Source: a virus. Taken from it: a stretch of DNA of 33,307 bases. Shown here in pieces: positions 1 through 33,307 of this stretch (position 1 is its first letter; each line of letters opens with the position of its first letter). A model generated the notes under the pieces. The model made no database searches, had not been told where the DNA came from, and saw only the letters and a program-made list of their open reading frames with translations. Location of the stretch: IMG/VR virus record IMGVR_UViG_3300015369_000022, positions 1 through 33,307 of that record. The stretch is one strand, 5' to 3'. The translations under genes were made by a program, and so were the position numbers.

Positions 1-141
1 CATGCCTTGTGTATTCCGGCGGAAAGTCAGTCCATGCAATCGTCAAGATCGACGCGGCTGATTATGCCGAATATCGGAAGCGTGTTGATTACCTTTATGA
101 GGTATGTAAGCAAAACGGACTTGTCATCGATACGCAAAACA
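1..141. repeat. Terminal overlap copy 1 (identical to 33167-33307)
   Basis: Read directly: catgccttgtgtattccggcgg...catcgatacgcaaaaca occurs at both window ends. Confidence 0.95.
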
Positions 142-10797: not shown

Positions 10798-11934
10798 ATG
10801 AAAATCGATAAGAATATGAAGGATCAGATCAACAAGATCTTCGAGAAGACCGAAGATAAGACTGACGCTGTTATCGAGGCTATGGAGCTTGTAAACGAGA
10901 ATAGATATAAGGAGCTCATCAGCCAGATCACAGAGGAAGCAGCTAATGTCCAGGCTAACGCTGATTATATGAAGCAGCTCGGACTCCATCAGCCGACAAA
11001 GAGCGAGAGAGAATTCTATGAGATCATCAAGAGCGGCAACATCAAACAGGCTATCTCAGCCGATCAGATCACTGTAATTCCTACAGAGATCATCGACAGG
11101 ACAATGGACGGACTCAAGAAGGAGTCGACAGTCCTTGAGCTGGTTGATTTCGCTCCGGCTAACGTGAAGAGATGGATCAGCGCAAGCTATACCGGATCTT
11201 ATGTATGGGGCGAGCTCTTCTCGGCTCTCGATAAGACAAAGGACATCCAGGCAACATTCAAGAGTATCGATCTTGAGCTCGGAAAGCTCTGGGCTCTGAT
11301 CATCATTCCAAAGGCTGTCAGAGACCTGGCTCTCCCATTCGTTGATAAGTATTTCACGGCTGTACTCGCTGAGGTTATGAGAGACGGCCTTGAGTATGGA
11401 TACATCAATGGAGCCGGCATCGCATCATATCAGCCGATTGGAATTCTGAACACAATCGACGATCCAGCTACAGCGAAGACAGCTGTCGAGATCACAGATC
11501 TAACTCCGGTCGGACTCGCTGATGCTTGCGTTACACTGACCACAGTCAATGGCGTTGTAGGTGCAAGAGCTATCGACGAGCTCCACATCGTATGCAATGC
11601 CGCCGATTACTTCCAGTATGTAAGACCGGCAATGCTTGTCCAGAATGCAATGGGAGCATGGGTTGATGGCACCGGAATGAATATCAAGGTACATCCGACC
11701 ACAAACATCGAGAGCGGAAAGGCTGCTCTGACTATCCCTCACGCTTATGTAATGGGATCCTCCGGCGTTGCACTCAATGAGTACAAGGAGACTCTCGCGC
11801 TCGATGACGCTGATCTGGTTATCGGCAAGGTATACGCTAATGGACGTCCGGCGGACGATAACGCGGCTGTAGTATTCGATCCTACAAAACTGACTCCGCT
11901 GTACTTCAATGTTAAGACCATCACTGGAGCATAG
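10798..11934 (+). CDS. Major capsid protein (HK97 fold)
   Basis: 378 aa, follows the protease, with a coiled N-terminal delta-like region. Confidence 0.85.
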   Translation: MKIDKNMKDQINKIFEKTEDKTDAVIEAMELVNENRYKELISQITEEAANVQANADYMKQLGLHQPTKSEREFYEIIKSGNIKQAISADQITVIPTEIIDRTMDGLKKESTVLELVDFAPANVKRWISASYTGSYVWGELFSALDKTKDIQATFKSIDLELGKLWALIIIPKAVRDLALPFVDKYFTAVLAEVMRDGLEYGYINGAGIASYQPIGILNTIDDPATAKTAVEITDLTPVGLADACVTLTTVNGVVGARAIDELHIVCNAADYFQYVRPAMLVQNAMGAWVDGTGMNIKVHPTTNIESGKAALTIPHAYVMGSSGVALNEYKETLALDDADLVIGKVYANGRPADDNAAVVFDPTKLTPLYFNVKTITGA

Positions 11935-14981: not shown

Positions 14982-17345
14982 ATGACTGACGATCTGAAAG
15001 TTGTCGGATTACAATTTAAGGCGGACGGCTCCGCGGACTTTAAGACGTCTCTAAAGGAGATCAATGCGGCATCGAAAGAGAATCAGTCTTCTCTCAAGCT
15101 TCTCAAGTCGCAATACGACCAGAACACATCCGCGACTCAAAAGCTGAAAAATGAGCAGCAATATCTCACGAAGCAAGTCGATCTTTACAAGGACAAGACC
15201 ACGATCCTCCGGAAGGAGCTCGAACAAATGGAGTCCGCTGAGAATCGTGATGAGGAAGCAATCAGCAAGAAAAAGACTCAGCTCAACCAGGCTGAGGCTC
15301 AGCTGAATAAGTATGAGTCCGCGCTTGATGACGTCAATACGAAACTGAAGACTCATCAAGCTGAGCTCGAAGAATGGAGCAAGAAGATCACATCTGTCGG
15401 CGACAAGATGCAAAAGGTCGGAGATGGCATGACGAAGTATGTTACCGGCTCGCTTGCGGCGGCATCGACTGCAATGGTCGGAGTAACTGAAGAGACTCGC
15501 GAGTATAGAACGGCGATGGGAAAGCTCAACACGGCCTTCACAACGAACGGTAAGAGCGCGGCACAGGCTGAAACCACATACAAGCAGCTTCAGTCAGTGC
15601 TTGGCGACTCTGATGTATCGGTAGAAGCAGCGAACCATCTTGCACAGCTGTGCGATGATGAACAGGATCTCCAGGCATGGACGAAAATCTGCACAGGCGT
15701 GTTCGCAACCTTCGGCGACTCATTGCCGATAGAAGGACTGACGGAGGCGGCGAACGAGACCGCAAAGTGCGGAGCTGTTACCGGGCCTTTTGCAGATGCT
15801 CTGAACTGGACGAGCACCAGCGCGGCGGCACTCGGCGATGCGATGGCATCCATACCGGCAGCACAGCAGGCATTCAATGACGCGATTGCCGAGGGCATGT
15901 CTAACGAGGACGCATTCAACGAGGCACTGGCGGCGTGCTCCGATGAGTCTGAGCGTGCGGCGATAATCACCAACACGATGGCGGCTGCTTATGATGGCGC
16001 AGCTGCATCCTACGAGGAAGGCAATGCTGACCTAATTGAAGCGAACAAAGCAACCGAAGACATGGCGGCAAGCATGGCGGACCTCGGAGCAGCTGCAGAG
16101 CCGATTGTAACGACCGGAAAGCAGATGGTGAGCGAGTTTCTTGTCAAGGCAGCAGACGCAGCGACTGAACTATCGAAGAAGTTTCAGAGCCTCTCACCTG
16201 ATACACAGAAACTCATACTGAAAGCGGCTGGCATTGCCGCGGCCATCGGCCCGGTGCTCTCTGTCGGAGGAAGACTGACGAAGGGAATCGGAAAAGTGGT
16301 CGGCAAGGTGCCGAACATTATCAAAGGCGTCCAGAGTGTCATCAAGATCGGCGGCAAGCTGAAGACGGCTCTCATGGCCTTGAATCCGACCACGCTGATC
16401 ATCATCGCGGTCATCGGTTCGCTCATTGCCATCGGCGTCGCATTGTATAAAAACTGGGATACGATCAAGGCATACGCCATCAAGATATGGAATGCCATCA
16501 AGACCACAGTCATTACTGTAGTCAATGGCATAAAGACCGGAGTTACGACGGCATTTAATGCGGTCAAGACCGTGGCTGTCACTGTATGGACCGCAATCAA
16601 GACGGCGATTATAACCGTGGTCAATGCAATCAAGACCGGCGTCATGACCGTATTCAATGGTGTGAAGACATTCGTCACGTCGGCATTCAATGGTATCAAG
16701 ACCGTGGCAACGACGGCATGGAATGCCATCAAGACCGCGATTCTCACTCCGATTACGACGGCAAGAGACAAGCTCAGCGGCATCATATCCGCGATCAAGA
16801 GCAAATTCTCATTCGGAGGCATCGCGGCATCTGTCGCGGCTACGTTCAATGCTGTCAAGTCGAAAATCACAGCTCCGATTGAGACGGCGAAGAACATCGT
16901 CAGCTCCGCGATCTCAAAGATCAAGAGCTTATTCAATGTGCATCTGTCATTCCCGAAGATCAAGCTCCCGCATTTCAAGATTACGGGAGGCAAAGTCCCG
17001 TGGGGAATCGGCGGCAAGGGTACAGCTCCGAAGATCGATATCCAGTGGTATCGCCGGGCTTATGAAACGGCGGCATATTTCGCGAAGCCGACTCTCATGA
17101 CAGCGACGGACGGATCCATCAAGGGATACGGAGACGGACCTGGCGGAGAATTTACCGTCGGAGAGAATAAGCTCCGGTCGACAGTCGCTTCCGGCGTTGC
17201 ATCAGCTTCCGGATTACTGGATCCGCAAGTGATTTACCAGGCGGCTCGACAGGGAGTCATCGACGGAATGAGCGAAGCGACAGTCACGCTCAAGCTGAAT
17301 GACCGTGAGGTCGCAAGAACACTAAGAACGATGGGAGCATTGTAA
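14982..17345 (+). CDS. Tape measure protein
   Basis: 787 aa with a coiled-coil N-terminus, hydrophobic segments and tandem 11-aa repeats. It follows the G/GT pair. Confidence 0.9.
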   Translation: MTDDLKVVGLQFKADGSADFKTSLKEINAASKENQSSLKLLKSQYDQNTSATQKLKNEQQYLTKQVDLYKDKTTILRKELEQMESAENRDEEAISKKKTQLNQAEAQLNKYESALDDVNTKLKTHQAELEEWSKKITSVGDKMQKVGDGMTKYVTGSLAAASTAMVGVTEETREYRTAMGKLNTAFTTNGKSAAQAETTYKQLQSVLGDSDVSVEAANHLAQLCDDEQDLQAWTKICTGVFATFGDSLPIEGLTEAANETAKCGAVTGPFADALNWTSTSAAALGDAMASIPAAQQAFNDAIAEGMSNEDAFNEALAACSDESERAAIITNTMAAAYDGAAASYEEGNADLIEANKATEDMAASMADLGAAAEPIVTTGKQMVSEFLVKAADAATELSKKFQSLSPDTQKLILKAAGIAAAIGPVLSVGGRLTKGIGKVVGKVPNIIKGVQSVIKIGGKLKTALMALNPTTLIIIAVIGSLIAIGVALYKNWDTIKAYAIKIWNAIKTTVITVVNGIKTGVTTAFNAVKTVAVTVWTAIKTAIITVVNAIKTGVMTVFNGVKTFVTSAFNGIKTVATTAWNAIKTAILTPITTARDKLSGIISAIKSKFSFGGIAASVAATFNAVKSKITAPIETAKNIVSSAISKIKSLFNVHLSFPKIKLPHFKITGGKVPWGIGGKGTAPKIDIQWYRRAYETAAYFAKPTLMTATDGSIKGYGDGPGGEFTVGENKLRSTVASGVASASGLLDPQVIYQAARQGVIDGMSEATVTLKLNDREVARTLRTMGAL
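16491..16754 (+). repeat. Eight tandem 33-nt (11-aa) repeats inside the tape measure gene
   Basis: NAIKTTVITVV NGIKTGVTTAF NAVKTVAVTVW TAIKTAIITVV NAIKTGVMTVF NGVKTFVTSAF NGIKTVATTAW NAIKTAILTPI. Confidence 0.85.
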
Positions 17346-17346
17346 G

Positions 17347-18189
17347 ATGAGTATTGATGTAATTTATACCGCATCAAGCGGAAACAAATATAATCTCAAG
17401 GCTTCCGGACTCGGGATGGATCGTGAGACGAATTTCCATTCCTGGACATACTCTCCGAATACTACTCAAAGACAGTACGGAGATAAGCTCAACCGATACG
17501 AGAAGGAGGCTCTGACATACAGCGCAAAATTATACTTCCGCGATTCAATCGAGGATTCGCGGGATATGATCGAAGCGCTCCACGAAGATTTCGAGCTCGA
17601 TATCTCGAATGAGACTCCGGGAAAAATATCGTGGAATGACTGGTATATCGAATGCTATGTCCAGTCATCCACATTGACTCCGGGCGATGATAATGGTTAT
17701 GTCGAGAATGAAGTCGAGATATACGCTCCATATCCTTTTTGGATTAAGGACGCAACGAAGACATTCAATGCATCGTCCGGGACTTCGGAGTATGAATTTC
17801 TCGACTATACTTTCGATTACGAATACGACTATACTCCGGCCGATGTCGGTGTCGCGAAGTGGATAACGCATCATGCGTTCAAGTCGGAATTCTTGATGCG
17901 AATTTATGGTCCATGTTCGAATCCGAAGGTTGTTATCAATGGCCATGTATATCAAGTGTACTGTTCACTCGGAAACGGCGAATATCTTCTCATCAATTCG
18001 AGAGAGGGTACGGCATACAAATACAGCTCGACCGGAGTCGCGACAAACGTATTCGATTTAAGAGATAAGACATCGAGCTTGTTCTACAAAATCCCGGGCG
18101 GGACGCTGACACTGACTTGGCCGGGGACATTCAAATTCGATCTGACACTGTATGAGGAAAGGAGTGAGCCTTTATGGACGACAGCGTAA
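17347..18189 (+). CDS. Distal tail protein (Dit, Sipho_tail-like)
   Basis: 280 aa, directly after the tape measure. Confidence 0.7.
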   Translation: MSIDVIYTASSGNKYNLKASGLGMDRETNFHSWTYSPNTTQRQYGDKLNRYEKEALTYSAKLYFRDSIEDSRDMIEALHEDFELDISNETPGKISWNDWYIECYVQSSTLTPGDDNGYVENEVEIYAPYPFWIKDATKTFNASSGTSEYEFLDYTFDYEYDYTPADVGVAKWITHHAFKSEFLMRIYGPCSNPKVVINGHVYQVYCSLGNGEYLLINSREGTAYKYSSTGVATNVFDLRDKTSSLFYKIPGGTLTLTWPGTFKFDLTLYEERSEPLWTTA

Positions 18190-19175
18190 GAATGATTCTT
18201 GCGACTCCGGACGGTAAGGAGCTCAAATTCCTCTCGGACATGACTATCGACATCGAGATCGGCTCGAGTGATGACACATTTCAATTGACTTTCTCTCGAG
18301 CGGCATGGGATGAGGATATCGAGGAAGGCTGTCGAGTCTTTATTCCGAACACGGAATACGGCGGCCGCGTGAAGCGCAAGGGGACAGCTACGTCATCGGA
18401 TGAGATCTCCGTCGGCGGGCTGACCTGGCGCGGGATGATGGACTATCGAATCATCCAGCCGGCATCCGGCAAAGATTACGCGACAGCATCCGGAGATCTG
18501 AATGAGATCATCAAGGAATTTGTCGAGGATGAATTCCCCGGCTTATTCTATGGAGTCGATACGGAGACCGGCGTCACGCTGACGAATTATCAATTCGACA
18601 GATATTGCACGCTCCACGATGGTCTTCAAAAGATGCTCAAAGAGAGCGGATATCGGCTTGATATCCAGTACATCCAGGGCGAAGCCGGTGCTCCGGGCTA
18701 TGTTCAAGCGCAAGCGCTCGAGATCATCGACTACTCGGACATCATCGAGCTGTCGGAAGACTCTCGAATCAATTACACGGCATCTGAGCGCCATGATTGT
18801 GTCAATCATCTTATATGTCTCGGCTCCGGAGACCTGGCTGAGCGTACTGTCATCCATCTTTACGTCGGATCCGACGGATCCGTCGGTACGACTCAATACT
18901 ATACCGGGCTCGACGAAGTCGTGGCTATATATGATTATGCCGGCGCTAATGATGACGATCTGAAGACAGAAGGGATCAAACAGTTGGAGAGCATGAAGGA
19001 CTCTGATAATTTCGCAATGGACATCTCAGAGCTCGACATCGACTCCATCGCTATCGGAGACATCGTCGGAGGAAGAGACTATCTGACCGGAATGAGCATG
19101 TCAGCGCCTATCGTCGGCAAGATTTATAAAGTCGAAAACGGCGAGGAATCAATTGAATTCAAATTGGAGGAATAA
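18174..19175 (+). CDS. Tail tip/baseplate protein (Sipho_Gp37-like, in the Tal position)
   Basis: 333 aa with an AAGGAG RBS, located between Dit and the fibre gene. Confidence 0.55.
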   Translation: MDDSVRMILATPDGKELKFLSDMTIDIEIGSSDDTFQLTFSRAAWDEDIEEGCRVFIPNTEYGGRVKRKGTATSSDEISVGGLTWRGMMDYRIIQPASGKDYATASGDLNEIIKEFVEDEFPGLFYGVDTETGVTLTNYQFDRYCTLHDGLQKMLKESGYRLDIQYIQGEAGAPGYVQAQALEIIDYSDIIELSEDSRINYTASERHDCVNHLICLGSGDLAERTVIHLYVGSDGSVGTTQYYTGLDEVVAIYDYAGANDDDLKTEGIKQLESMKDSDNFAMDISELDIDSIAIGDIVGGRDYLTGMSMSAPIVGKIYKVENGEESIEFKLEE

Positions 19176-19177
19176 CC

Positions 19178-19939
19178 ATGAATATTATTACCGGATACGG
19201 CGGCGAGCCGCACGTTACAGCTCCACAGGATCGTCAGCTGAACGCTGGCATCCTCTCGGAATATAATTATGTACTCAGTGTCGGGAATCAATTCGCATAT
19301 GAGATCGAGTCGGCGAATTCCGTCATCCTTAAAGACGGGATTCTGTCCCTCCAGGGATGCGCTGCTTCGATTGATGCGAATGATACAGAGACGGTCACTC
19401 TGACGAATGGTACATCCGGATATAAACGGACGGATTTGATCGTGGCACGTTATGAGCTCAACACTGATACAGCCGTCGAGTCGGTCACGCTGGCCGTCAT
19501 CGAAGGCACTCCGGCGGAATCGGATCCGGAGACTCCATCATACAATGAAGGTACGATCGCGGACGGTGACAGCCCGGTTGACTTCCCGCTGTATAAGGTC
19601 AATATCGACGGAGTAAGCATCGATTCACTGACTCAGATGTTTACGGTCCTTCCGTCAATTAGTGATTTAAACAGCAACACAGTGAAAGATATCAGAGTCA
19701 TTGAAGTGTCCGTATCAATAACAATCAATGCATCTACATCCGGCACAAAAACCGCGACTTATACCATCCCGGATGGCTATAAGGTTGTTATGTTCGGAGG
19801 ATGCACATCGTCAAATACTACAATCGTCCCGGCTGGTGTTACAGGCTTATCCGGGACTGCAACATTTAGAGGACGCAACACATCGAGCTCATCTCAGACA
19901 ACAACGCTGACAGCTATCTTGTTATGCTTTAAAAGTTAG
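19178..19939 (+). CDS. Tail fibre / receptor-binding protein; the current C-terminus is cassette x1 (19678-19939)
   Basis: Last tail gene before the lysis module. Its C-terminal ~87 aa are homologous to three silent cassettes. Recombination core A lies in frame at 19667-19677. Confidence 0.7.
   Translation: MNIITGYGGEPHVTAPQDRQLNAGILSEYNYVLSVGNQFAYEIESANSVILKDGILSLQGCAASIDANDTETVTLTNGTSGYKRTDLIVARYELNTDTAVESVTLAVIEGTPAESDPETPSYNEGTIADGDSPVDFPLYKVNIDGVSIDSLTQMFTVLPSISDLNSNTVKDIRVIEVSVSITINASTSGTKTATYTIPDGYKVVMFGGCTSSNTTIVPAGVTGLSGTATFRGRNTSSSSQTTTLTAILLCFKS
19667..19677 (+). repeat. Recombination core A (TTAAACAGCAA), inside the tail-fibre ORF
   Basis: Read directly. Codons TTA AAC AGC AAc encode LNSN. 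Confidence 0.7.
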
Positions 19940-19968
19940 GAGTAAAGCCTATAAAGTAAGGAATAAGT

Positions 19969-20226
19969 TTAATCCTTCATATACAGAATACTTAAAATAA
20001 CATATTCATTAGAATAAGCTGTTGAATTGTGATTCTTTACTCTAACAATTGCATCTGTACCATCCAGATTGAATTTTGCAATTGTACTTGCACCGGAAAA
20101 CCAATTCATCACTCCTACAATACCAATCGGCGTATAACCATCTTTTGAGACATCGGTTGTTATGTCCAATGTACTGGATGCAGGAAGCGTTGCTTTTGCG
20201 GATGTAATATTCTCAACAAGAAACAT
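19969..20226 (-). CDS. Silent alternative tail-fibre C-terminal cassette x2 (frame open up to core B at 20237-20247)
   Basis: Convergent with the fibre 3' end. The upstream in-frame codons read QLNSNIKD, against DLNSNTVKD in the fibre. It shares the DGY motif and a hydrophobic C-terminal pattern. No RBS or promoter is visible. Confidence 0.6.
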   Translation of the reverse strand: MFLVENITSAKATLPASSTLDITTDVSKDGYTPIGIVGVMNWFSGASTIAKFNLDGTDAIVRVKNHNSTAYSNEYVILSILYMKD

Positions 20227-20236
20227 ATCCTTGATA

Positions 20237-20247
20237 TTGCTGTTTAA
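20237..20247 (-). repeat. Recombination core B (TTAAACAGCAA on the - strand)
   Basis: Exact inverted copy of core A, in the same codon register. Confidence 0.7.
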
Positions 20248-20277
20248 TTGATTAGTTATTTCTAAGGAGAATTGAAA

Positions 20278-20580
20278 ATGAATGAAGGTACAAAGATAAG
20301 GACCGCGCTTCGCGTTGCGGTCTCTTTGAATACCGCGATTTATGCTGTAATGGCCGCGGTCAATGGTCTCGGAAGCACAAAGGCGTCAATCGTCTGGAGC
20401 GTGCTGACGATTCTCAGTGATTTCGTCGTGTCGTTTATTACGACATACTATAACAACGATTATACGAAGGAAGCGTGTCTCGGGACCGGCATCACGCGCC
20501 AGCTGAAGGCTGAGGGCGGTGACGGCTACGGAGCTGAGACATTCTTTTCAGATGAGGAAGGAGCGTCAGAGGATGAATAG
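20278..20580 (+). CDS. Holin (SPP1-family-like)
   Basis: AAGGAG lies 8 nt upstream of ATG 20278. Motifs are GTKIRTAL, two TM-like segments and YYNNDYTKEA, with an acidic tail. It overlaps the endolysin start. Confidence 0.75.
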   Translation: MNEGTKIRTALRVAVSLNTAIYAVMAAVNGLGSTKASIVWSVLTILSDFVVSFITTYYNNDYTKEACLGTGITRQLKAEGGDGYGAETFFSDEEGASEDE

Positions 20581-21409
20581 TGCTATATACAGACAGTATG
20601 ATTCACGCTGGGGCTCGCTTCCGTATCCTACGAAGACCTATAACATGAGCGGATGCGGATGCGGATGTTGCGCGGTGCTCCATTGCATTATCGAGCGCTC
20701 AAAATATGCGAAGTATACTCCGAAGACCATCCAGCCATACATGAAGGGCTTCGCTGTCGGCGGAAACGGGACTCTTTGGAGCGGGATCCGCGACGGGCTG
20801 AAGCATTATGGCATGGATAATGTCAAATGGTTTGGTGCATCGGCCACAATGACGGAGATCTTCGCTGAGCTGAAGAAGGGATCCAGAATCGGAGTCATCC
20901 TCTTCGGATCCACGAAAGGCCCGGACGGGACTGTATGGACCACAGGCGGCCATTATATCGCTTTTACGGATTACAAGATCAAGAATAGCAAGCACTATTT
21001 TTATCTTAAGGATTCCGGCGGACGGAAGCATGATGGATGGTATTGCTATGAGAAGTCCATGAAGGGCGATGTCCGCCAGGTCTGGACATGTACTGTCCCG
21101 AAGGAGGCATCGACAGCCACAGCGACAGCTTCCACAAAGAAGACCACAGCGAAGACATCATCGAAAAAGACCTATTCCGGGACATTCCCGTCCTTCTCAA
21201 AGTGTCTCGAGAAGGGCGATAAGGGGACTCAAGTGAAGAATCTCCAGAAATTCCTCAATTGGTACGGAGGATATAAGCTCACTGTCGATGGTATTTACGG
21301 ATCCGCGACAGTGACAGCCGTGAAAAAATTTCAAAAGGCTGAGGGACTGACCGCTGACGGCATATTCGGCCCGGCATCCCTCAAGGCCGCGAAGAAGGTG
21401 AAGAAGTGA
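20573..21409 (+). CDS. Endolysin: N-terminal papain-fold cysteine peptidase plus C-terminal PG_binding_1 domain
   Basis: Motifs are YDSRWGSLPY..SGCGCGCCAV (catalytic Cys region) and GGHYIAF. The C-terminus GDKGTQVKNLQKFLN...VDGIYGSATVTAVKKFQ is a peptidoglycan-binding repeat. Confidence 0.8.
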   Translation: MNSAIYRQYDSRWGSLPYPTKTYNMSGCGCGCCAVLHCIIERSKYAKYTPKTIQPYMKGFAVGGNGTLWSGIRDGLKHYGMDNVKWFGASATMTEIFAELKKGSRIGVILFGSTKGPDGTVWTTGGHYIAFTDYKIKNSKHYFYLKDSGGRKHDGWYCYEKSMKGDVRQVWTCTVPKEASTATATASTKKTTAKTSSKKTYSGTFPSFSKCLEKGDKGTQVKNLQKFLNWYGGYKLTVDGIYGSATVTAVKKFQKAEGLTADGIFGPASLKAAKKVKK

Positions 21410-21705
21410 TGCCGCCAGAGGTGTTAATTGCTATCATCGGGAGCTCAGCTCTCTTCTCATTCATTCAATTCATTATCACGCGAATTGATAACAAGCGGAA
21501 TAATCCGCTCAATGACGCGGTAAAAGCGCTGCTCAGAGACCGGCTGATTCACATATGCTCCGGATATCTGAGGAATGGCGAGATCCGCGTCAACGATCTC
21601 GACACGGTTATAAGCTTATATACATCGTATAAAGAACTCGGCGGGAATGGTTTCGTCACGGAGCTGGTCGACCAGGTGACGGAGCTTCCTAAAATTCATA
21701 ATTAA
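21406..21705 (+). CDS. N-terminally membrane-anchored protein (possible lysis accessory protein)
   Basis: A TM segment (VLIAIIGSSALFSFIQFII) lies at the N-terminus. The start overlaps the endolysin stop. Confidence 0.5.
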   Translation: MMPPEVLIAIIGSSALFSFIQFIITRIDNKRNNPLNDAVKALLRDRLIHICSGYLRNGEIRVNDLDTVISLYTSYKELGGNGFVTELVDQVTELPKIHN

Positions 21706-21722
21706 ATACTTCCTACATATAA

Positions 21723-21755
21723 GGCGGGCCTTTAATGGTCCGCCGCTTTTTTTTA
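21723..21755 (+). terminator. Rho-independent terminator ending the late/lysis operon
   Basis: The hairpin ggcgggcc-tttaat-ggtccgcc is followed by a T9 tract. Confidence 0.75.
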
Positions 21756-21801
21756 TTTGATAAGATTCTCGAATCGAATCAAAATGAAGGAGGAAATTAT
21801 T

Positions 21802-22662
21802 ATGTACGAGTATGAAGAATTATGGGATACAGCCTTGAGACGCTTCCGGGCTTGCAAGACATTGGAGAATTGTGCTGAGACCACCATCAAGCAATATGAA
21901 GACATCATTCGGAAACTGAGGCAATGGACAGACAAGCCGCTGGACCAGATCAATGGAGACGATCTCCGGGAATTCCTGGCGGAATACCATTCGAGCCGGA
22001 ATGTCTCGCTTGCATATCTCGACACTCTGAGACGCTATCTGTCGGCATGGTTTGGATGGGTAGCCGATGACGATCTGATTATGAAGAATCCGGCAAGGAA
22101 AATCCCGAAGATTAAAGTCCCGAAGACCGTCAAGAAGGCATTCACATCCGAAGAACGCGAGATGCTCAAGGATTCCGCGTCATCTATTCGAGATCTGGCG
22201 CTCATGGAGGTCCTTTATTCGACCGCGGCCCGTATCAACGAGATCCTGGCGCTGGATCAGAGCGATGTCGACTTCCCGAATCGTGAGATCGTCATATACG
22301 GACAGAAAGGCAAGCGGGAGAGAATCGTATATCTGTCGGATCCGGCGGCATATCGCCTCCAGCGCTATCTCGAGAGCCGGTCCGATAAGAATCCGGCGCT
22401 ATTCGTCTCGAATCGGAAGCCGTATCAGCGCTTAACGTCCCAGGGAGCTCAGCGGATGCTCAGAGAGCTGGGACGCGAGACCGGGATCCATGTTCACGCT
22501 CACAAATTTCGGCGGAGCTTCCTCACTGATGCATCATCGAAAGGAATGAGCCTCCAGGAATTACAGATCTACGCTGGCCATGTGAAGCCGGAAACCACAA
22601 TGACATACATCGACGTCAAACAGGAAGACATCAAAGCCACATTCCGGAGAATAATCACATAA
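21802..22662 (+). CDS. Small tyrosine site-specific recombinase (XerC/D-like size); candidate shufflon invertase
   Basis: GAAGGAGG RBS precedes ATG 21802. Catalytic signature is ARINEIL (R), HKFRRSF (HxxR) and GHVKPETTMTYI (H..Y). The stop codon TAA (22660-22662) is part of core C. Confidence 0.8.
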   Translation: MYEYEELWDTALRRFRACKTLENCAETTIKQYEDIIRKLRQWTDKPLDQINGDDLREFLAEYHSSRNVSLAYLDTLRRYLSAWFGWVADDDLIMKNPARKIPKIKVPKTVKKAFTSEEREMLKDSASSIRDLALMEVLYSTAARINEILALDQSDVDFPNREIVIYGQKGKRERIVYLSDPAAYRLQRYLESRSDKNPALFVSNRKPYQRLTSQGAQRMLRELGRETGIHVHAHKFRRSFLTDASSKGMSLQELQIYAGHVKPETTMTYIDVKQEDIKATFRRIIT

Positions 22663-22669
22663 ACAGCAA
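22660..22669 (+). repeat. Recombination core C (TAAACAGCAA)
   Basis: Read directly. It is in the register aTA AAC AGC AAt and leads in frame into cassette x3. Confidence 0.65.
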
Positions 22670-22670
22670 T

Positions 22671-22922
22671 TTGACGCTTGTAAAAAAAACGTATACTGGA
22701 ACGACGTCCGACACAAATTCCATCGTAAGCACGGAGCTAAGCATCGAAGATTATATTCCTCTTAAATGTAATTGTGCCATCAAAGGCTATGAGGTATGTG
22801 TTGTGCCTTATTGTTATAGCACATGGAAGTTTCAGCTCGTCGCTGCTAACGGTCATGCTCCTGTCGGTTCTGGGAAAAGTTACACCTTAACTGTGTGGCT
22901 TTTGGAATGGCCTACATCTTAA
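22671..22922 (+). CDS. Silent alternative tail-fibre C-terminal cassette x3 (in frame from core C)
   Basis: It has no ATG or RBS; the track start is TTG. It is ~85 aa with a KGY motif and an LTVWLLEW-type C-terminal strand, homologous in layout to x1, x2 and x4. Confidence 0.5.
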   Translation: MTLVKKTYTGTTSDTNSIVSTELSIEDYIPLKCNCAIKGYEVCVVPYCYSTWKFQLVAANGHAPVGSGKSYTLTVWLLEWPTS

Positions 22923-22932
22923 TGCCTCAAGA

Positions 22933-23191
22933 CTAATCATCCGATGCTCTGAGCAAGAGCCGGAGCTTGCAAGTTATTCCGGAGGCTGAGCCGGATGTGT
23001 GGTTTACAATATACGCTCTGTTGAGGCTGTCATTGAGTTTAACTGTCAGATAATGATAATTTGTGCCGGACAGCAATGGAGTTATTGACAGACAATCATA
23101 ACCATCCGGGACAGTAAAAGCATAAGGAGTCGAATTGCCTCCGGCATAAGAGCCGCCTGTTACAAGCGTGATGTCCTCAATCGTGAGAGTT
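22933..23191 (-). CDS. Silent alternative tail-fibre C-terminal cassette x4 (in frame from core D)
   Basis: FTVPDGYDCL in x4 aligns with YTIPDGYKVV in the expressed fibre. The track ORF extends to 23328 only by read-through of noncoding repeats. Confidence 0.6.
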
Positions 23192-23201
23192 TTGCTGTTT
23201 A
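23192..23201 (-). repeat. Recombination core D (TAAACAGCAA on the - strand)
   Basis: Read directly. The register is GTA AAC AGC AAA, encoding VNSK. Confidence 0.65.
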
Positions 23202-23230
23202 CTTGACAAACACGCTCAAATTCCGCATCA

Positions 23231-23290
23231 AGCTTGATTATTTTATAATTTTTTGAAAATAGCTTGATTATTTTATAATTTTTTGAAAAT
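23231..23290. repeat. Perfect 2 x 30-bp tandem repeat (agcttgattattttataattttttgaaaat)
   Basis: Read directly: 23231-23260 is identical to 23261-23290. Confidence 0.9.
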
Positions 23291-23299
23291 GCGGAAAAA

Positions 23300-23328
23300 A
23301 TTCGCGCAAAATCCGGAAAATTTGTCAA
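23300..23328 (-). promoter_or_regulatory. Promoter-like element facing leftward toward core D
   Basis: On the - strand, TTGACA is followed by 17 nt and then GCGAAT, with TG at the extended -10 position. The -10 is weak. Confidence 0.3.
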
Positions 23329-23481
23329 GTTACATCGGCTGGATATTGAGAGGGGTATGGCATTTCCCTCCTTGAGCTTATTCTATTCGAGGACATCATC
23401 GTCCTCATCGTCGAGCCCGGCGAAGTCGGTCTCGGCATCCACAGGACCGGAGTGACGAGCAGCTCCGGTCTTGTATTTCGA

Positions 23482-23502
23482 GGGTGAATTTAGGGGTGAA
23501 TT
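23482..23502 (+). repeat. Putative integrase arm-type sites (GGGTGAATT, GGGGTGAATT), left arm of attP
   Basis: Direct repeats at 23482-23490 and 23493-23502. Confidence 0.5.
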
Positions 23503-23613
23503 GACTCATTTTTATTGATATTTAATGATAATGAATTTATAATCTTTTCCATATGTTTCACGAATTATCAACATCCGTGATGCGCGGTGATAAGCGAAGA
23601 TAAGGGACATAAT

Positions 23614-23639
23614 GAATTCAAGTCCCTCTTCGCGCACCA
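23614..23639 (+). other. Putative attP core: 3' end of a tRNA gene (T-loop, T-stem 3' strand, acceptor 3' strand, CCA)
   Basis: gaaTTCAAGTCCCTCTTCGCGCACCA resembles T-loop/TTCAAGT + CCCTC + TTCGCGC + A + CCA. No matching 5' half is present, so this is a fragment and not a gene. Confidence 0.55.
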
Positions 23640-23640
23640 T

Positions 23641-23685
23641 AAGAGCGTCGGAATTTCAACGTGTCCGGCGCTCTTTCCTTTTGTT
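23641..23685 (+). terminator. Terminator-like hairpin directly after the tRNA 3' fragment
   Basis: aagagcgtcgga...tccggcgctctt (one mismatch) is followed by tccttttgtt. Confidence 0.45.
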
Positions 23686-23686
23686 A

Positions 23687-23707
23687 GGGGTGAAAACGGG
23701 GTGAATT
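23687..23707 (+). repeat. Putative integrase arm-type sites (GGGGTGAAAA, GGGGTGAATT), right arm of attP
   Basis: Direct repeats at 23687-23696 and 23698-23707, in the same orientation as the left-arm copies. Confidence 0.5.
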
Positions 23708-23751
23708 ATACCCGCTGAGGCTGAAAATTTGCCGGGTATCCCGCGAGTAAA

Positions 23752-23780
23752 TCAAAAAGCCGACCGCTTTGTGGTCGGCT
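23752..23780 (-). terminator. Rho-independent terminator of the integrase gene
   Basis: The - strand reads AGCCGACC-acaaagc-GGTCGGCT followed by TTTTTGATTT. Confidence 0.7.
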
Positions 23781-23806
23781 CATTAAAATCGCTTAAATCG
23801 AGAATT

Positions 23807-24952
23807 TTAGCTTTGCGCTGATAAGAGCTCATCGATGCCATGCGCTATTCCTCTGGAGCTGGCGGATGCATCCTGGAAGAGATGAGTGTATATGTCGAGC
23901 GTGGTCGACTTCTCAGCATGTCCCAGCTGGCTCGATATGTCGAGTATGTCATATCCCAGATATCTCGCAAGGCTGGCGTGAGTATGACGGAGCTTGTGCG
24001 GTGTTACGGCCGGGAGATTGTGTCGCTCTTCCAGCCGCATCAAATACCAGCTGACTTGATTCGAGTGGATCGGGGATCCGTCATAGTCCAGGATGACGAA
24101 ATTTGATCGCTCAAGGCCCGGCATCCGGATCCAGAGCTCGAGATGCCGCTTCCGGAGCTGAGCGAGATGATCCTTGAGCCGGTCCGGGATGGCTATCGTC
24201 CGGGCTGACTCTTTTGTTTTGGTATCAGAGACGATGTCCTTGATCTCATCGCCGGTATTCACGCGATGGCGCGACTTATTCACAGTGATGATGCCGTCTC
24301 CGATGTTATCGACGGTGAGACCTAAGATCTCCGACATACGGAGACCACAGAATAAGGCCAGCTCAATCGCACATACGCGGTCCGGCTCCGCGTCAAATTC
24401 CGTATCAAGAGCGCTACAAAATGGAATAAATGTCTCAATGTCCAGAGTGATCGGCTCCTTGCGCTCTTTTTTCGGAAGCTCGACTCGCTCGCAAGGATTC
24501 CGGTCGAGCTCTCCCAGGCGGACAGCCCGGTTATATGCTGAGCTGAGCAGCGAGACCGTATTCCGGACCGTCTTCGGAGAATAATTCTTGTCTTCCGTCA
24601 GTTTCCGGATCCATCTGTCGATATCCATCGGCTTCACGTTCTTCGCTTTCGGATCTCCCAGAGTCTCAGCGATGCGCTCCCGGACTACACGGTATCCTCT
24701 GAGCGTGGTCTCTCTGGCTCCGGCCGACTTCCTGGCGTCGATATAGTCATTGATGATGTCAGAGAGCGTCACGGATCCGCGGAGAGCCTTATTATTATCG
24801 ACTTCGGTCTCGAATAATCTGTATTGACGATTGAGATCCCGCTTCGATGTATATTCGACCGTCTTCTTGTATCGGATCGGCTTCCCGGCGAGATCTGATC
24901 CTCTGTATACCACGAGCCGGGCCTTATGATCGTTAATTATTTCAATTCCCAT
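23807..24952 (-). CDS. int: Phage integrase (tyrosine recombinase with N-terminal arm-binding-type domain)
   Basis: 381 aa. Signature is GLRMSEIL (R), HKLRHTHAS (HxxR) and GHAEKSTTLDIYTH (H..Y). The gene is adjacent to attP and the repressor. Confidence 0.9.
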   Translation of the reverse strand: MGIEIINDHKARLVVYRGSDLAGKPIRYKKTVEYTSKRDLNRQYRLFETEVDNNKALRGSVTLSDIINDYIDARKSAGARETTLRGYRVVRERIAETLGDPKAKNVKPMDIDRWIRKLTEDKNYSPKTVRNTVSLLSSAYNRAVRLGELDRNPCERVELPKKERKEPITLDIETFIPFCSALDTEFDAEPDRVCAIELALFCGLRMSEILGLTVDNIGDGIITVNKSRHRVNTGDEIKDIVSDTKTKESARTIAIPDRLKDHLAQLRKRHLELWIRMPGLERSNFVILDYDGSPIHSNQVSWYLMRLEERHNLPAVTPHKLRHTHASLARYLGYDILDISSQLGHAEKSTTLDIYTHLFQDASASSRGIAHGIDELLSAQS

Positions 24953-32435: not shown

Positions 32436-33307
32436 GGGCTACAACATCAAGGATGTGCTCGCATATCTTGAGCCTTCGGAGCTCGATTATACGGAGTGGA
32501 CTAAGGTCGGAATGGGGCTCAAGGAGTCCGGATATTCCGTCGAGATATGGGATGACTGGTCCGCCAGGGATCCGGGCCGATATCATCCGGGCGAATGTGA
32601 GAAAAAGTGGAATTCATTCCGCGGAGGCTATGACAGGGATGTATCCGTCGGATCTATCGTCCAGATGGCTAAGGATCGCGGCTGGATGCCGCCGGTCGAG
32701 GAAGGCCACGAGCTGTCATGGGATGATTACATCGGCAAGGACAAGAAGGTCATCGACAAGGCATGGCTCGAGGGCGAGGAAGTCCATGAGCCGAATGATA
32801 AGGAATGGAAGCAAGCCGCGGAGCTGATCAAGTACATTGATACGCTCTTCGCATCCGATGAGTATGTCGGATATGTATGTGAGGCATGGCAAAACAAGGA
32901 CGGGAAATATCTCCCATCCAAAGGCGTGTATACGATGACGGCCGGCGAGCTGATTGACAAGCTGTCGAAGTGTAAGAATAACGACATCGGCTCCGTACTC
33001 GGAGATTATAAGCCGGAGGTCGGAGCATGGATCCGCTTTAATCCGCTTGATGGTAAGGGAGTCAAGAATGACAATGTCACGGATTTCAGATATGCACTGG
33101 TAGAGTCTGACACGATGCCGATCGATAAGCAAAATGCCATGATCAGAGAGCTGGAGCTTCCGGTCGCATGCCTTGTGTATTCCGGCGGAAAGTCAGTCCA
33201 TGCAATCGTCAAGATCGACGCGGCTGATTATGCCGAATATCGGAAGCGTGTTGATTACCTTTATGAGGTATGTAAGCAAAACGGACTTGTCATCGATACG
33301 CAAAACA
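32425..33307 (+). CDS. Primase-helicase, N-terminal part (PriCT-2-like domain plus primase-polymerase-like core); continues to 1346 across the junction, about 695 aa in total
   Basis: ATG 32425 overlaps the helicase stop. Motifs are YTEWTKVGMGLKESGYSVEIWDDWS (PriCT-2-like) and VESD...VYSGGKSVHA (catalytic-core-like). There is no stop codon before the window end. Confidence 0.8.
   Translation, partial: MDGKGYNIKDVLAYLEPSELDYTEWTKVGMGLKESGYSVEIWDDWSARDPGRYHPGECEKKWNSFRGGYDRDVSVGSIVQMAKDRGWMPPVEEGHELSWDDYIGKDKKVIDKAWLEGEEVHEPNDKEWKQAAELIKYIDTLFASDEYVGYVCEAWQNKDGKYLPSKGVYTMTAGELIDKLSKCKNNDIGSVLGDYKPEVGAWIRFNPLDGKGVKNDNVTDFRYALVESDTMPIDKQNAMIRELELPVACLVYSGGKSVHAIVKIDAADYAEYRKRVDYLYEVCKQNGLVIDTQN
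33167..33307. repeat. Terminal overlap copy 2 (identical to 1-141)
   Basis: Read directly. The copy is in frame with the ORF that starts at 32425. Confidence 0.95.

Follow-up and report, generated by a model that had tools for sequence, protein, structure and literature searches.

The fibre locus and its four cassettes

IMG/VR virus record IMGVR_UViG_3300015369_000022 (positions 1 to 33,307; this whole stretch of 33,307 nucleotides is referred to here as the window) contains a gene for a fibre or receptor-binding protein (RBP) whose 3′ end is one of four cassettes, x1 to x4, set between four copies of a short core sequence, A to D. The proximal pair, x1 and x2, lies at the fibre gene itself, and the distal pair, x3 and x4, lies beyond the lysis genes and a tyrosine recombinase gene. 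Here we describe this arrangement and argue that the distal pair is probably the silent half of a fibre shufflon. The 141-bp direct repeat at the ends of the window (1-141 and 33167-33307) marks it as a complete, circular phage genome (~33,166 bp), and the phage is a temperate siphophage. Coordinates are collected in Table 1.

The core is a 10-bp sequence that occurs exactly four times in the genome, in alternating orientation (+, -, +, -). When up to one mismatch was allowed we found a single further match, at 1291, and a total of five matches was reached in 0/100 dinucleotide-preserving shuffles. The one-mismatch copy (TCAACAGCAA, 1291-1300, +) lies inside the open reading frame (ORF) of an AAA_25 replication gene (9-1346) and is probably there by chance. 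All four cassettes begin at a core and share one frame with the fibre gene (codons L-N-S-N/K), such that joining each silent cassette to the constant part predicts an uninterrupted fusion of 255 (fibre::x2), 250 (fibre::x3) or 252 (fibre::x4) amino acids (aa). The predicted joins read ...DLNSN-LTLVKK... for x3 and ...SISDLNSK-TLTIEDI... for x4. Open frames of this kind are rarely obtained from shuffled DNA. When 22660-23201 was shuffled, 0.6% of trials kept one fixed-start frame open for 86 codons, and both converging frames (≥86 and ≥88 codons) stayed open in 5e-5 of trials. The locus thus combines a constant 5′ part with alternative in-frame 3′ ends that lack expression signals of their own, and it carries a dedicated site-specific recombinase.

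Table 1. Positions of the cores, cassettes and genes of the fibre locus in the window, and of the corresponding cores in three related prophage groups.
Feature	Position	Strand	Remarks
Core A	19668-19677	+	TAAACAGCAA; read L-N-S-N inside the fibre gene
Core B	20237-20246	-	TAAACAGCAA
Core C	22660-22669	+	TAAACAGCAA; first 3 nt are the recombinase TAA stop (22660-22662)
Core D	23192-23201	-	TAAACAGCAA
Fibre/RBP, constant N-terminal part	19178-19677	+	167 aa; ends in core A
Cassette x1	19678-19939	+	head expressed at present
Cassette x2	19969-20236	-	proximal silent head
Cassette x3	22670-22922	+	distal silent head; open for 84 codons in core frame
Spacer between converging x3 and x4 stops	22923-22932		10 bp
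Cassette x4	22933-23191	-	distal silent head; open for 86 codons in core frame
Junction A/x1			CAATTAGTGATTTAAACAGCAACACAGTGAAAG
Predicted junction A/x2			CAATTAGTGATTTAAACAGCAATATCAAGGATATG
Predicted junction A/x3			CAATTAGTGATTTAAACAGCAATTTGACGCTTG
Predicted junction A/x4			CAATTAGTGATTTAAACAGCAAAACTCTCACGATTG
Predicted reciprocal D-flank junction, example			GTGTTTGTCAAGTAAACAGCAACACAGTGAAAG
Module M, between cores B and C	20247-22659	+	holin, endolysin, orf98, terminator, XerD-like recombinase
Tyrosine recombinase	21802-22662	+	286 aa; Pfam Phage_integrase 1e-33
Holin-like gene	20278-20580		basis: Pfam/PHROG matches for module M
Endolysin	20573-21409		PG_binding_1 domain; basis: Pfam/PHROG matches for module M
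orf98	21409-21705		in module M
Intrinsic terminator, strong	21723-21752		8-bp stem with 7 GC pairs, then T8
Outer flank of core D	23202-23331		non-coding, palindromic: CTTGACAAA ... TTTGTCAAG
Tape measure	14982-17345		
Dit	17347-18189		
Minor tail protein	18174-19175		333 aa
Fibre ORF	19178-19939	+	253 aa
Canonical integrase	23807-24952	-	381 aa; Int_N domain
Cores of L011	10491, 11145, 17040, 17661	+, -, +, -	
Cores of L012	10491, 11171, 15448, 16169	+, -, +, -	
Cores of L009	10491, 11126, 14494	+, -, +	A, B, C

A sequence-only reading of this DNA had proposed that cores C (+) and D (-) bracket x3 (+) and x4 (-), that the two cassettes converge with 10 bp between their stops, that the 3′ end of the recombinase gene lies upstream of C and non-coding DNA upstream of D on the minus strand, and that neither cassette can be expressed in place or has a gene to feed there. 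The layout stood when checked to exact coordinates, and the silence of the two cassettes in place was supported. No credible gene was found upstream of D and, given that the window is complete and circular, the absence of any other gene for x3 and x4 to feed holds for the whole phage. The spacer contains no core and x3 and x4 are therefore expected to move as a pair. The same reading had also named x4 as the closest relative of the expressed x1, and this we could not uphold. The two share only the local motif [YF]T[IV]PDGY (32% over 25 aa, 20.0 bits), x1 and x2 align over 84 aa at 22.3 bits, and PDGY or PAGY recurs across many unrelated heads of the fibre family. A special kinship between x4 and x1 was rejected, their likeness being that of a 7-residue motif common across the family.

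Expression of x3 and x4 in place appears improbable on several grounds. Neither frame has an ATG, no credible minus-strand gene lies upstream of D, and the sole 5′-proximal starts are TTG codons at 22671 (x3) and 23328 (x4). The Shine-Dalgarno match at both is 3/6, compared with 5-6/6 for the fibre, holin, endolysin, orf98 and recombinase genes. A JGI gene caller did call a 131-aa ORF for x4 (P0122, 22933-23328), the first 42 codons of which are low-complexity read-through of a 30-bp tandem repeat. An exact look-up in ~15 billion proteins found neither the in-place x3 ORF nor that of x4, and only the x2 ORF is on record. Moreover, in all relatives examined each distal cassette starts with the core in the L-N-S/G frame, which fits modules made for fusion and not free-standing genes.

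The constant and variable parts of the fibre can also be told apart in the protein. PHROG 9994, 25635 and 13141 match only residues 1-170, and among 1857 database homologues the N-terminus is common, with complete divergence past residue ~165. In an AlphaFold (AF2) model that drew on 40 homologues, a confident beta domain (40-155) is followed by a short helix (161-169) and a beta head (172-252). The helix spans the core-encoded L-N-S-N and, as it sits between the two beta domains, the crossover site would fall in the neck that joins the anchor to the receptor-binding head. Foldseek searches with this model retrieved the RBPs of lactococcal phages p2 and 1358 and a cyanophage tail fibre with probabilities of 0.96-1.0, but the template modelling scores (TM-scores) were low. 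AF2 prediction of fibre::x4 from the single sequence was unusable (predicted local distance difference test score, pLDDT, 32).

The recombinase has Phage_integrase and SAM-like domains and is an armless XerC/D/A-like enzyme. Against the PDB it matched the XerC-like 4a8e at 1e-31, with XerA and XerD also matched, and it shows hardly any similarity to the integrase that the phage encodes. Its catalytic Tyr lies in ...TTMTYIDV.... The recombinase frame ends within core C, hence the protein is unchanged whichever cassette lies downstream; in relatives the stop is found 20-110 bp before the core. A Pfam scan of 20 ORFs of the window, in which the small ORFs were covered in part, found no serine recombinase family and only two tyrosine recombinases. 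Homologues at 38-65% identity lie between two cassette pairs at more than 25 loci from three phage groups and, by this guilt by association, the adjacent XerD-like enzyme is the probable catalyst.

The terminator parts the lysis genes from the recombinase gene, which appears to be its own transcription unit within module M. M in turn is bounded by inverted cores and should itself be invertible. Beyond x3 and x4 there are ~600 bp of non-coding DNA before the integrase gene, and a cI-like repressor gene lies near the integrase end of the gene order. Between core D and the integrase, the palindromic flank encloses a perfect 30-bp tandem duplication, AGCTTGATTATTTTATAATTTTTTGAAAAT (23231-23290), and could be attP, a regulatory site or a site for an accessory factor. 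An Rfam scan of 22500-23900, which includes this flank, gave nothing meaningful. ARAGORN found no tRNA or tmRNA, and blastn of 17300-24000 against 50,697 GenBank phages returned no match.

Distal cassettes and inversions in related phages

In line with the sequence-only reading, homologues of distal cassettes are carried on the fibre in related phages. The distal C cassette of prophage L011 (17040-17335) reappears on contig L034, at 97.3% nucleotide (nt) identity, as the expressed head of fibre P0048. As far as ...SLSSLNGK, P0048 and the L011 fibre share an N-terminus (96% identity), with the breakpoint placed precisely at the core. For x3, an exhaustive HMMER search gave one convincing homologue (E 2e-6), the head of the 129-aa P0124 (38-42% identity; 38% over 88 aa pairwise), which is joined to its N-terminal anchor through TTAAATAGTAA, read as LNSN (...TLNSN...). 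The match of x4 to the expressed head of P0020 is collinear and weak (25% over 73 aa, pairwise E 3e-4), and a word-based homology search with x4 returned only x4 itself.

The split layout is kept in three prophage groups (L009, L011 and L012) whose fibre N-terminus is ~50% identical to that of the window and whose cores read TAAATGGCAA or TAAATAGCAA. All three have tail and lysis genes in the B-to-C interval, and the families of these genes (holins, lysins) are unrelated. Host genes follow D in L011, placing its distal pair at the prophage end. The cassettes of these phages have changed position: the proximal silent cassette of L011 has its orthologue (87% aa identity) in the distal D cassette of L012. 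Within L012, the B and C cassettes are duplicates that have since diverged (82% nt, 90% aa). When metagenomes were scanned with the LfA+core pattern of the L011/L012 group we recovered two short contigs, both with new cassettes and with M in forward orientation, and the same pattern had 0 matches in IMG/VR. Neither scan found the M-inverted state in this sub-family, whose M holds lysis genes. The duplicated B and C cassettes of L012 form a 371-bp inverted repeat (10815-11185 and 15443-15813, 82% identical) on either side of a 4.3-kb tail/lysis module, and this repeat could also support homologous inversion. In L011, the region from the endolysin to the distal pair (15452-16940) encodes a 285-aa protein with a match to the N-terminal half of Cas_Csd1 (E 6e-22) and holds a MazE-like gene as well, possibly moron or anti-defence cargo.

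Members of the same fibre family in which M holds only the recombinase gene are represented by 80 relatives retrieved from IMG/VR. An inverted core lies 0.5-0.85 kb past the junction in ~39/80, a recombinase homologue (38-42% identity) directly follows core B in 15/80, and 17/80 contigs end ~80-380 bp from the junction. Within this family, positions 10513-13149 of L098 correspond to positions 13165-10499 of L119 in reverse (89.5% over 2,679 bp). The fibre N-termini of the two are collinear and the recombinase of L098 is on the minus strand, indicating that the whole A-to-D segment lies in opposite orientations. A further 13 IMG/VR loci were found through the recombinase alone (53% identity). 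Here the gene again lies between two cassette pairs, and the core, AAATAGTGA, is again read L-N-S. Module M of L026 is 99% identical to and collinear with that of L024, yet the DNA that lies beyond D in L024 (9496-11353) is found reversed and upstream of M in L026, and the intervening pair in L026 is the proximal pair of L019, reversed (95%). The arrangement of L026 is the product predicted for A-D inversion, with M inverted relative to its flanks and a proximal pair at the D flank.

Whole pairs also appear to move between phages. The closest relative of the recombinase, from L052 (65% identity), is accompanied by four TTAAATAGTAA cores on a contig that ends exactly at D. The distal pair of L052 (10864-11516) is the proximal pair of L049 (2055-2707) at 95.9% nt identity, although L049 is an unrelated phage. 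The pair is silent and distal in L052; in L049 it is proximal and one cassette is expressed as the head of P0124. The homology ends within ~8 bp of the cores and the flanks are unrelated, which suggests the exchange of a whole cassette pair between phages.

Assemblies of related loci tend to break at the cores. Of 106 recombinase homologues, ~20 (among P0128-P0195) are known only on contigs of 1.07-1.26 kb, and one cluster of 614 members has a longest contig of 1,196 bp. L054 (1,258 bp) has cores at 21 and 1234, and this contig is thus just the B-to-C module. Contigs break at both cores of M because each side of M joins more than one sequence in the sample. From 36 sites (window, L009, L011, L012, L019, L021, L024, L034, L049, L052 and L055) we derived the core consensus tAAAYRGYRA, always read L-N-S/G-(N/K/E) and often with TTAGT at -9 to -5 in the constant-side flank. 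A scan of genome contigs added 12 Clostridia/Lachnospiraceae loci, with an obvious proximal inverted core in 1/12, and its main value was for host assignment. A sub-group comprising L057, L059, L065, L067 and L068, with core AAATAAGGAT, has one + and two - cores within 750 bp, possibly forming a compact array of three sites whose cassettes are short.

Proposed mechanism

We propose that x3 and x4 are silent alternative receptor-binding heads forming the distal half of a four-site, four-cassette fibre shufflon, and we put the probability of this reading at roughly 0.75. The shufflon would be laid out as the fibre N-terminal part, core A, x1 and the reversed x2, core B, then holin, endolysin, orf98, terminator and recombinase, followed by core C, x3 and the reversed x4, and core D. 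The recombinase would act on pairs of the asymmetric core in inverted orientation, giving four possible inversions (A-B, C-D, B-C and A-D). Inversion between A and B would swap x1 and x2 on the fibre. Inversion between C and D would flip the distal pair in place and leave all proteins unaffected, readying x3 for a later A-D event. A-D inversion would turn the whole 3.5-kb segment, fusing x4 to the fibre and parking x1 and x2 distally; after a prior C-D inversion the same event would bring x3 to the fibre instead. The fibre would thus receive x4 in one step (A-D) and x3 in two (C-D, then A-D), and a B-C inversion would restore the lysis-recombinase module to its productive orientation. Enumeration of these events gives 16 arrangements and four fibre isoforms, with M inverted in half of the states. 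The sequence-only reading had described the distal pair as a silent reservoir reachable only through recombination with core A, but had made no mention of the lysis and recombinase genes being turned by the A-D route. The comparative evidence in relatives supports this description, and for the phage of the window we infer from it that switching continues.

A number of observations weigh against this proposal. The one-step A-D product places the holin and endolysin genes on the strand opposite the late operon. Just 32 bp separate core B from the ATG of the holin gene, there is no promoter for the lysis genes within M, and a promoter scan beyond core D found no promoter-like site on the minus strand pointing inward. 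Because the holin start lies so near B and no inward promoter-like site lies beyond D, the A-D product is probably lysis-defective until a B-C inversion flips M back. Large inversions were seen only in relatives whose M holds only the recombinase gene. Cores A and C, and likewise B and D, form direct repeats, so that essential genes would be lost if the members of either pair recombined. The homologues of x4 are only weak. Among the relatives with the split layout, no homologue of the recombinase lies within 10 kb in L009, L011 or L012, and in L009 and L011 there is no recombinase among the genes from the endolysin to the distal pair; the absence within 10 kb makes a trans-acting recombinase possible. 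Lastly, collections hold no alternative isomer of the phage itself, the x1 form alone being present, on 2-3 contigs, and both retrievable contigs (Logan SRR350590 and JGI 3300005362) carry the same isomer. The three predicted chimeric fibres were absent from the ~15 billion proteins searched by exact look-up, and exact IMG/VR scans for the phage's LfA+core and LfD+core gave 0 matches. Both assemblies pass unbroken through all four cores, suggesting that one isomer was dominant in those samples. In relatives, by contrast, isomers are plentiful, as are assemblies that break at the cores.

Alternative explanations

The solitary isomer, with its unbroken assemblies, would also be expected if frequent switching were confined to A-B and the distal pair were an evolutionary store only, drawn upon through rare large inversions or through exchange of pairs between co-resident phages. 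An A-D product that inverts the lysis genes would be costly, and the pair shared by L049 and L052 between unrelated flanks points to horizontal exchange. We nonetheless consider this explanation unlikely. Cores C and D are exact and the frames behind them have been kept open, the whole array occurs in both orientations among close relatives, and relatives' contigs that consist of M alone or end at C and D indicate heterogeneity within samples on the distal side too. The same intact frames (P ~5e-5 by chance), together with the identity of C and D to A and B, make it hardly credible that x3 and x4 are the decaying and non-functional relic of a contiguous shufflon split by insertion of the lysis module. 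Such a relic would account for the few or absent close homologues of x3 and x4 and for the contiguous or recombinase-only layouts being commoner. However, L009, L011 and L012 have kept the split layout with lysis genes despite unrelated holins and lysins, and their cassettes have moved between distal and proximal positions.

The cores B, C and D might instead be mainly regulatory, with inversion of M (B-C) toggling the expression of the lysis and recombinase genes and the distal cassettes being incidental. M is bounded by inverted cores and M-inverted states do occur in relatives; moreover, transcription of the lysis genes relies on read-through from the fibre gene, and the recombinase gene sits behind its own terminator. 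Yet a lysis switch cannot be the general function, as the M of most relatives holds only the recombinase gene and leaves the lysis genes outside, and the intact in-frame heads at C and D would be left unexplained. We judge this account very unlikely. It is more improbable still that x3 or x4, or both, are independent small genes. The 131-aa x4 ORF exists mechanically from its TTG and was called as P0122, and x3 might be translated by re-initiation, TTG 22671 being 9 nt past the recombinase stop. Against this stand the absence of any ATG, the Shine-Dalgarno matches of 3/6 beside 5-6/6 for the neighbouring genes, the tandem-repeat origin of the upstream 42 codons, the core in fibre-junction frame (L-N-S/G) at the start of the distal cassettes of all relatives, and the occurrence of homologues fused to N-terminal anchors.

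The proposal that x3 and x4 are the silent distal heads of a fibre shufflon can be extended further, in a form that we offer tentatively and regard as rather unlikely. This would be a general bipartite shufflon with an invertible recombinase (and lysis) module, in which the switch to a distal head is coupled to the turning of the lysis genes and pairs are swapped by recombinase-mediated cassette exchange. If true, a prophage sub-population would be transiently lysis-incompetent until the second flip (B-C), and pair swaps between co-resident phages would explain how the same pair (96% nt) comes to lie in unrelated backbones.

Significance and comparison with known systems

The window belongs to a widespread family in prophages of gut Clostridia/Lachnospiraceae, with at least three phage groups and dozens of loci whose core is read L-N-S. 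The cassettes of this family form two pairs flanking a recombinase gene and, in this phage and a few relatives, flanking lysis genes as well. Half of the receptor-binding repertoire would accordingly be hidden from ordinary annotation, as orphan ORFs or 'non-coding' DNA beside attP, and host-range prediction from the annotated fibre alone would be wrong. Such loci also break metagenome assemblies in a predictable manner. Should the coupling to lysis orientation be real, host-range switching would be linked to lysis competence.

In the shufflon of R64/IncI1 plasmids, the tyrosine recombinase Rci acts at asymmetric 19-bp sfx sites to give alternative pilV C-termini from silent segments without expression signals (Komano 1999, cited in PMC13418256). 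The window resembles it in the predicted multiple inversions, the alternating short sites and the single constant 5′ part that takes alternative 3′ ends. It differs in that R64 encodes a plasmid pilus adhesin and not a phage RBP, and in that the R64 segments are contiguous with rci outside them. In the hsdS shufflons of type I restriction-modification systems (pneumococcal ivr/SpnD39III) a tyrosine recombinase gene lies between the expressed and silent modules. The recombinase gene of the window is likewise within or beside the inverting DNA, whereas the hsdS systems concern cellular specificity subunits, have longer inverted repeats and are not known to include lysis genes.

Phages also possess tail-fibre switches driven by serine recombinases, namely Gin (Mu), Cin (P1), Min (p15B) and the FRphi shufflon, which employ an enhancer/Fis mechanism (PMC13418256). 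These share the path proposed for the window, from DNA inversion to alternative tail-fibre C-termini and host range, but the window contains tyrosine enzymes. The shufflon of BV01-like Phocaeicola phages has three cassettes, 10-bp directional motifs and an adjoining recombinase, with all configurations present in reads (PMC13596623). Unlike the window, it is a contiguous 1.7-kb array over the fibre 3′ end with no essential genes in the invertible DNA. The tail-fibre shufflons of Min/p15B, FRphi with Gin and the BV01-like phages are all compact.

Of the systems described so far, the Rin shufflon of Bifidobacterium prophages comes nearest; there, a constant RBP N-terminus of 168 aa is joined to C-termini of ~95-100 aa (Mavrich et al. 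2018, PMC6109161). An asymmetric rix repeat of ~11 bp stands before every cassette, and the invertase is an armless XerD-like enzyme distinct from the integrase (PMC6109161). The constant part in the window is of similar length (167 aa), its alternative C-termini are 83-88 aa long, and it too has an armless XerD-like tyrosine recombinase separate from the integrase. Homology (29% identity, E 6e-13) also links the fibre N-terminus of the window to a fibre-like gene in Bifidobacterium phage PMBT6, behind which lie small cassette ORFs and then a 290-aa recombinase in a Rin-like layout. There are also clear differences. Rin is contiguous (Rc, Rv cassettes, rin), whereas the window is split, with 2.4 kb between cores B and C; the crossover sequence is TTCCCTAACCC in Rin and TTAAACAGCAA in the window; the recombinases show faint pairwise similarity and are barely alignable; and the hosts here are Clostridia/Lachnospiraceae as opposed to Actinobacteria.

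Descriptions of phage shufflons driven by tyrosine recombinases are few (Rin, 2018; BV01-like phages, 2026), and the arrays in them are all compact. The idea of a shufflon is itself not new. What is new here is the probable form of the shufflon, a bipartite RBP system run by a tyrosine recombinase in which the recombinase gene and, in this phage, the lysis cassette are part of the invertible DNA, and it is the split architecture, the breadth in phages of gut Clostridia and the possible coupling to lysis that are noteworthy.

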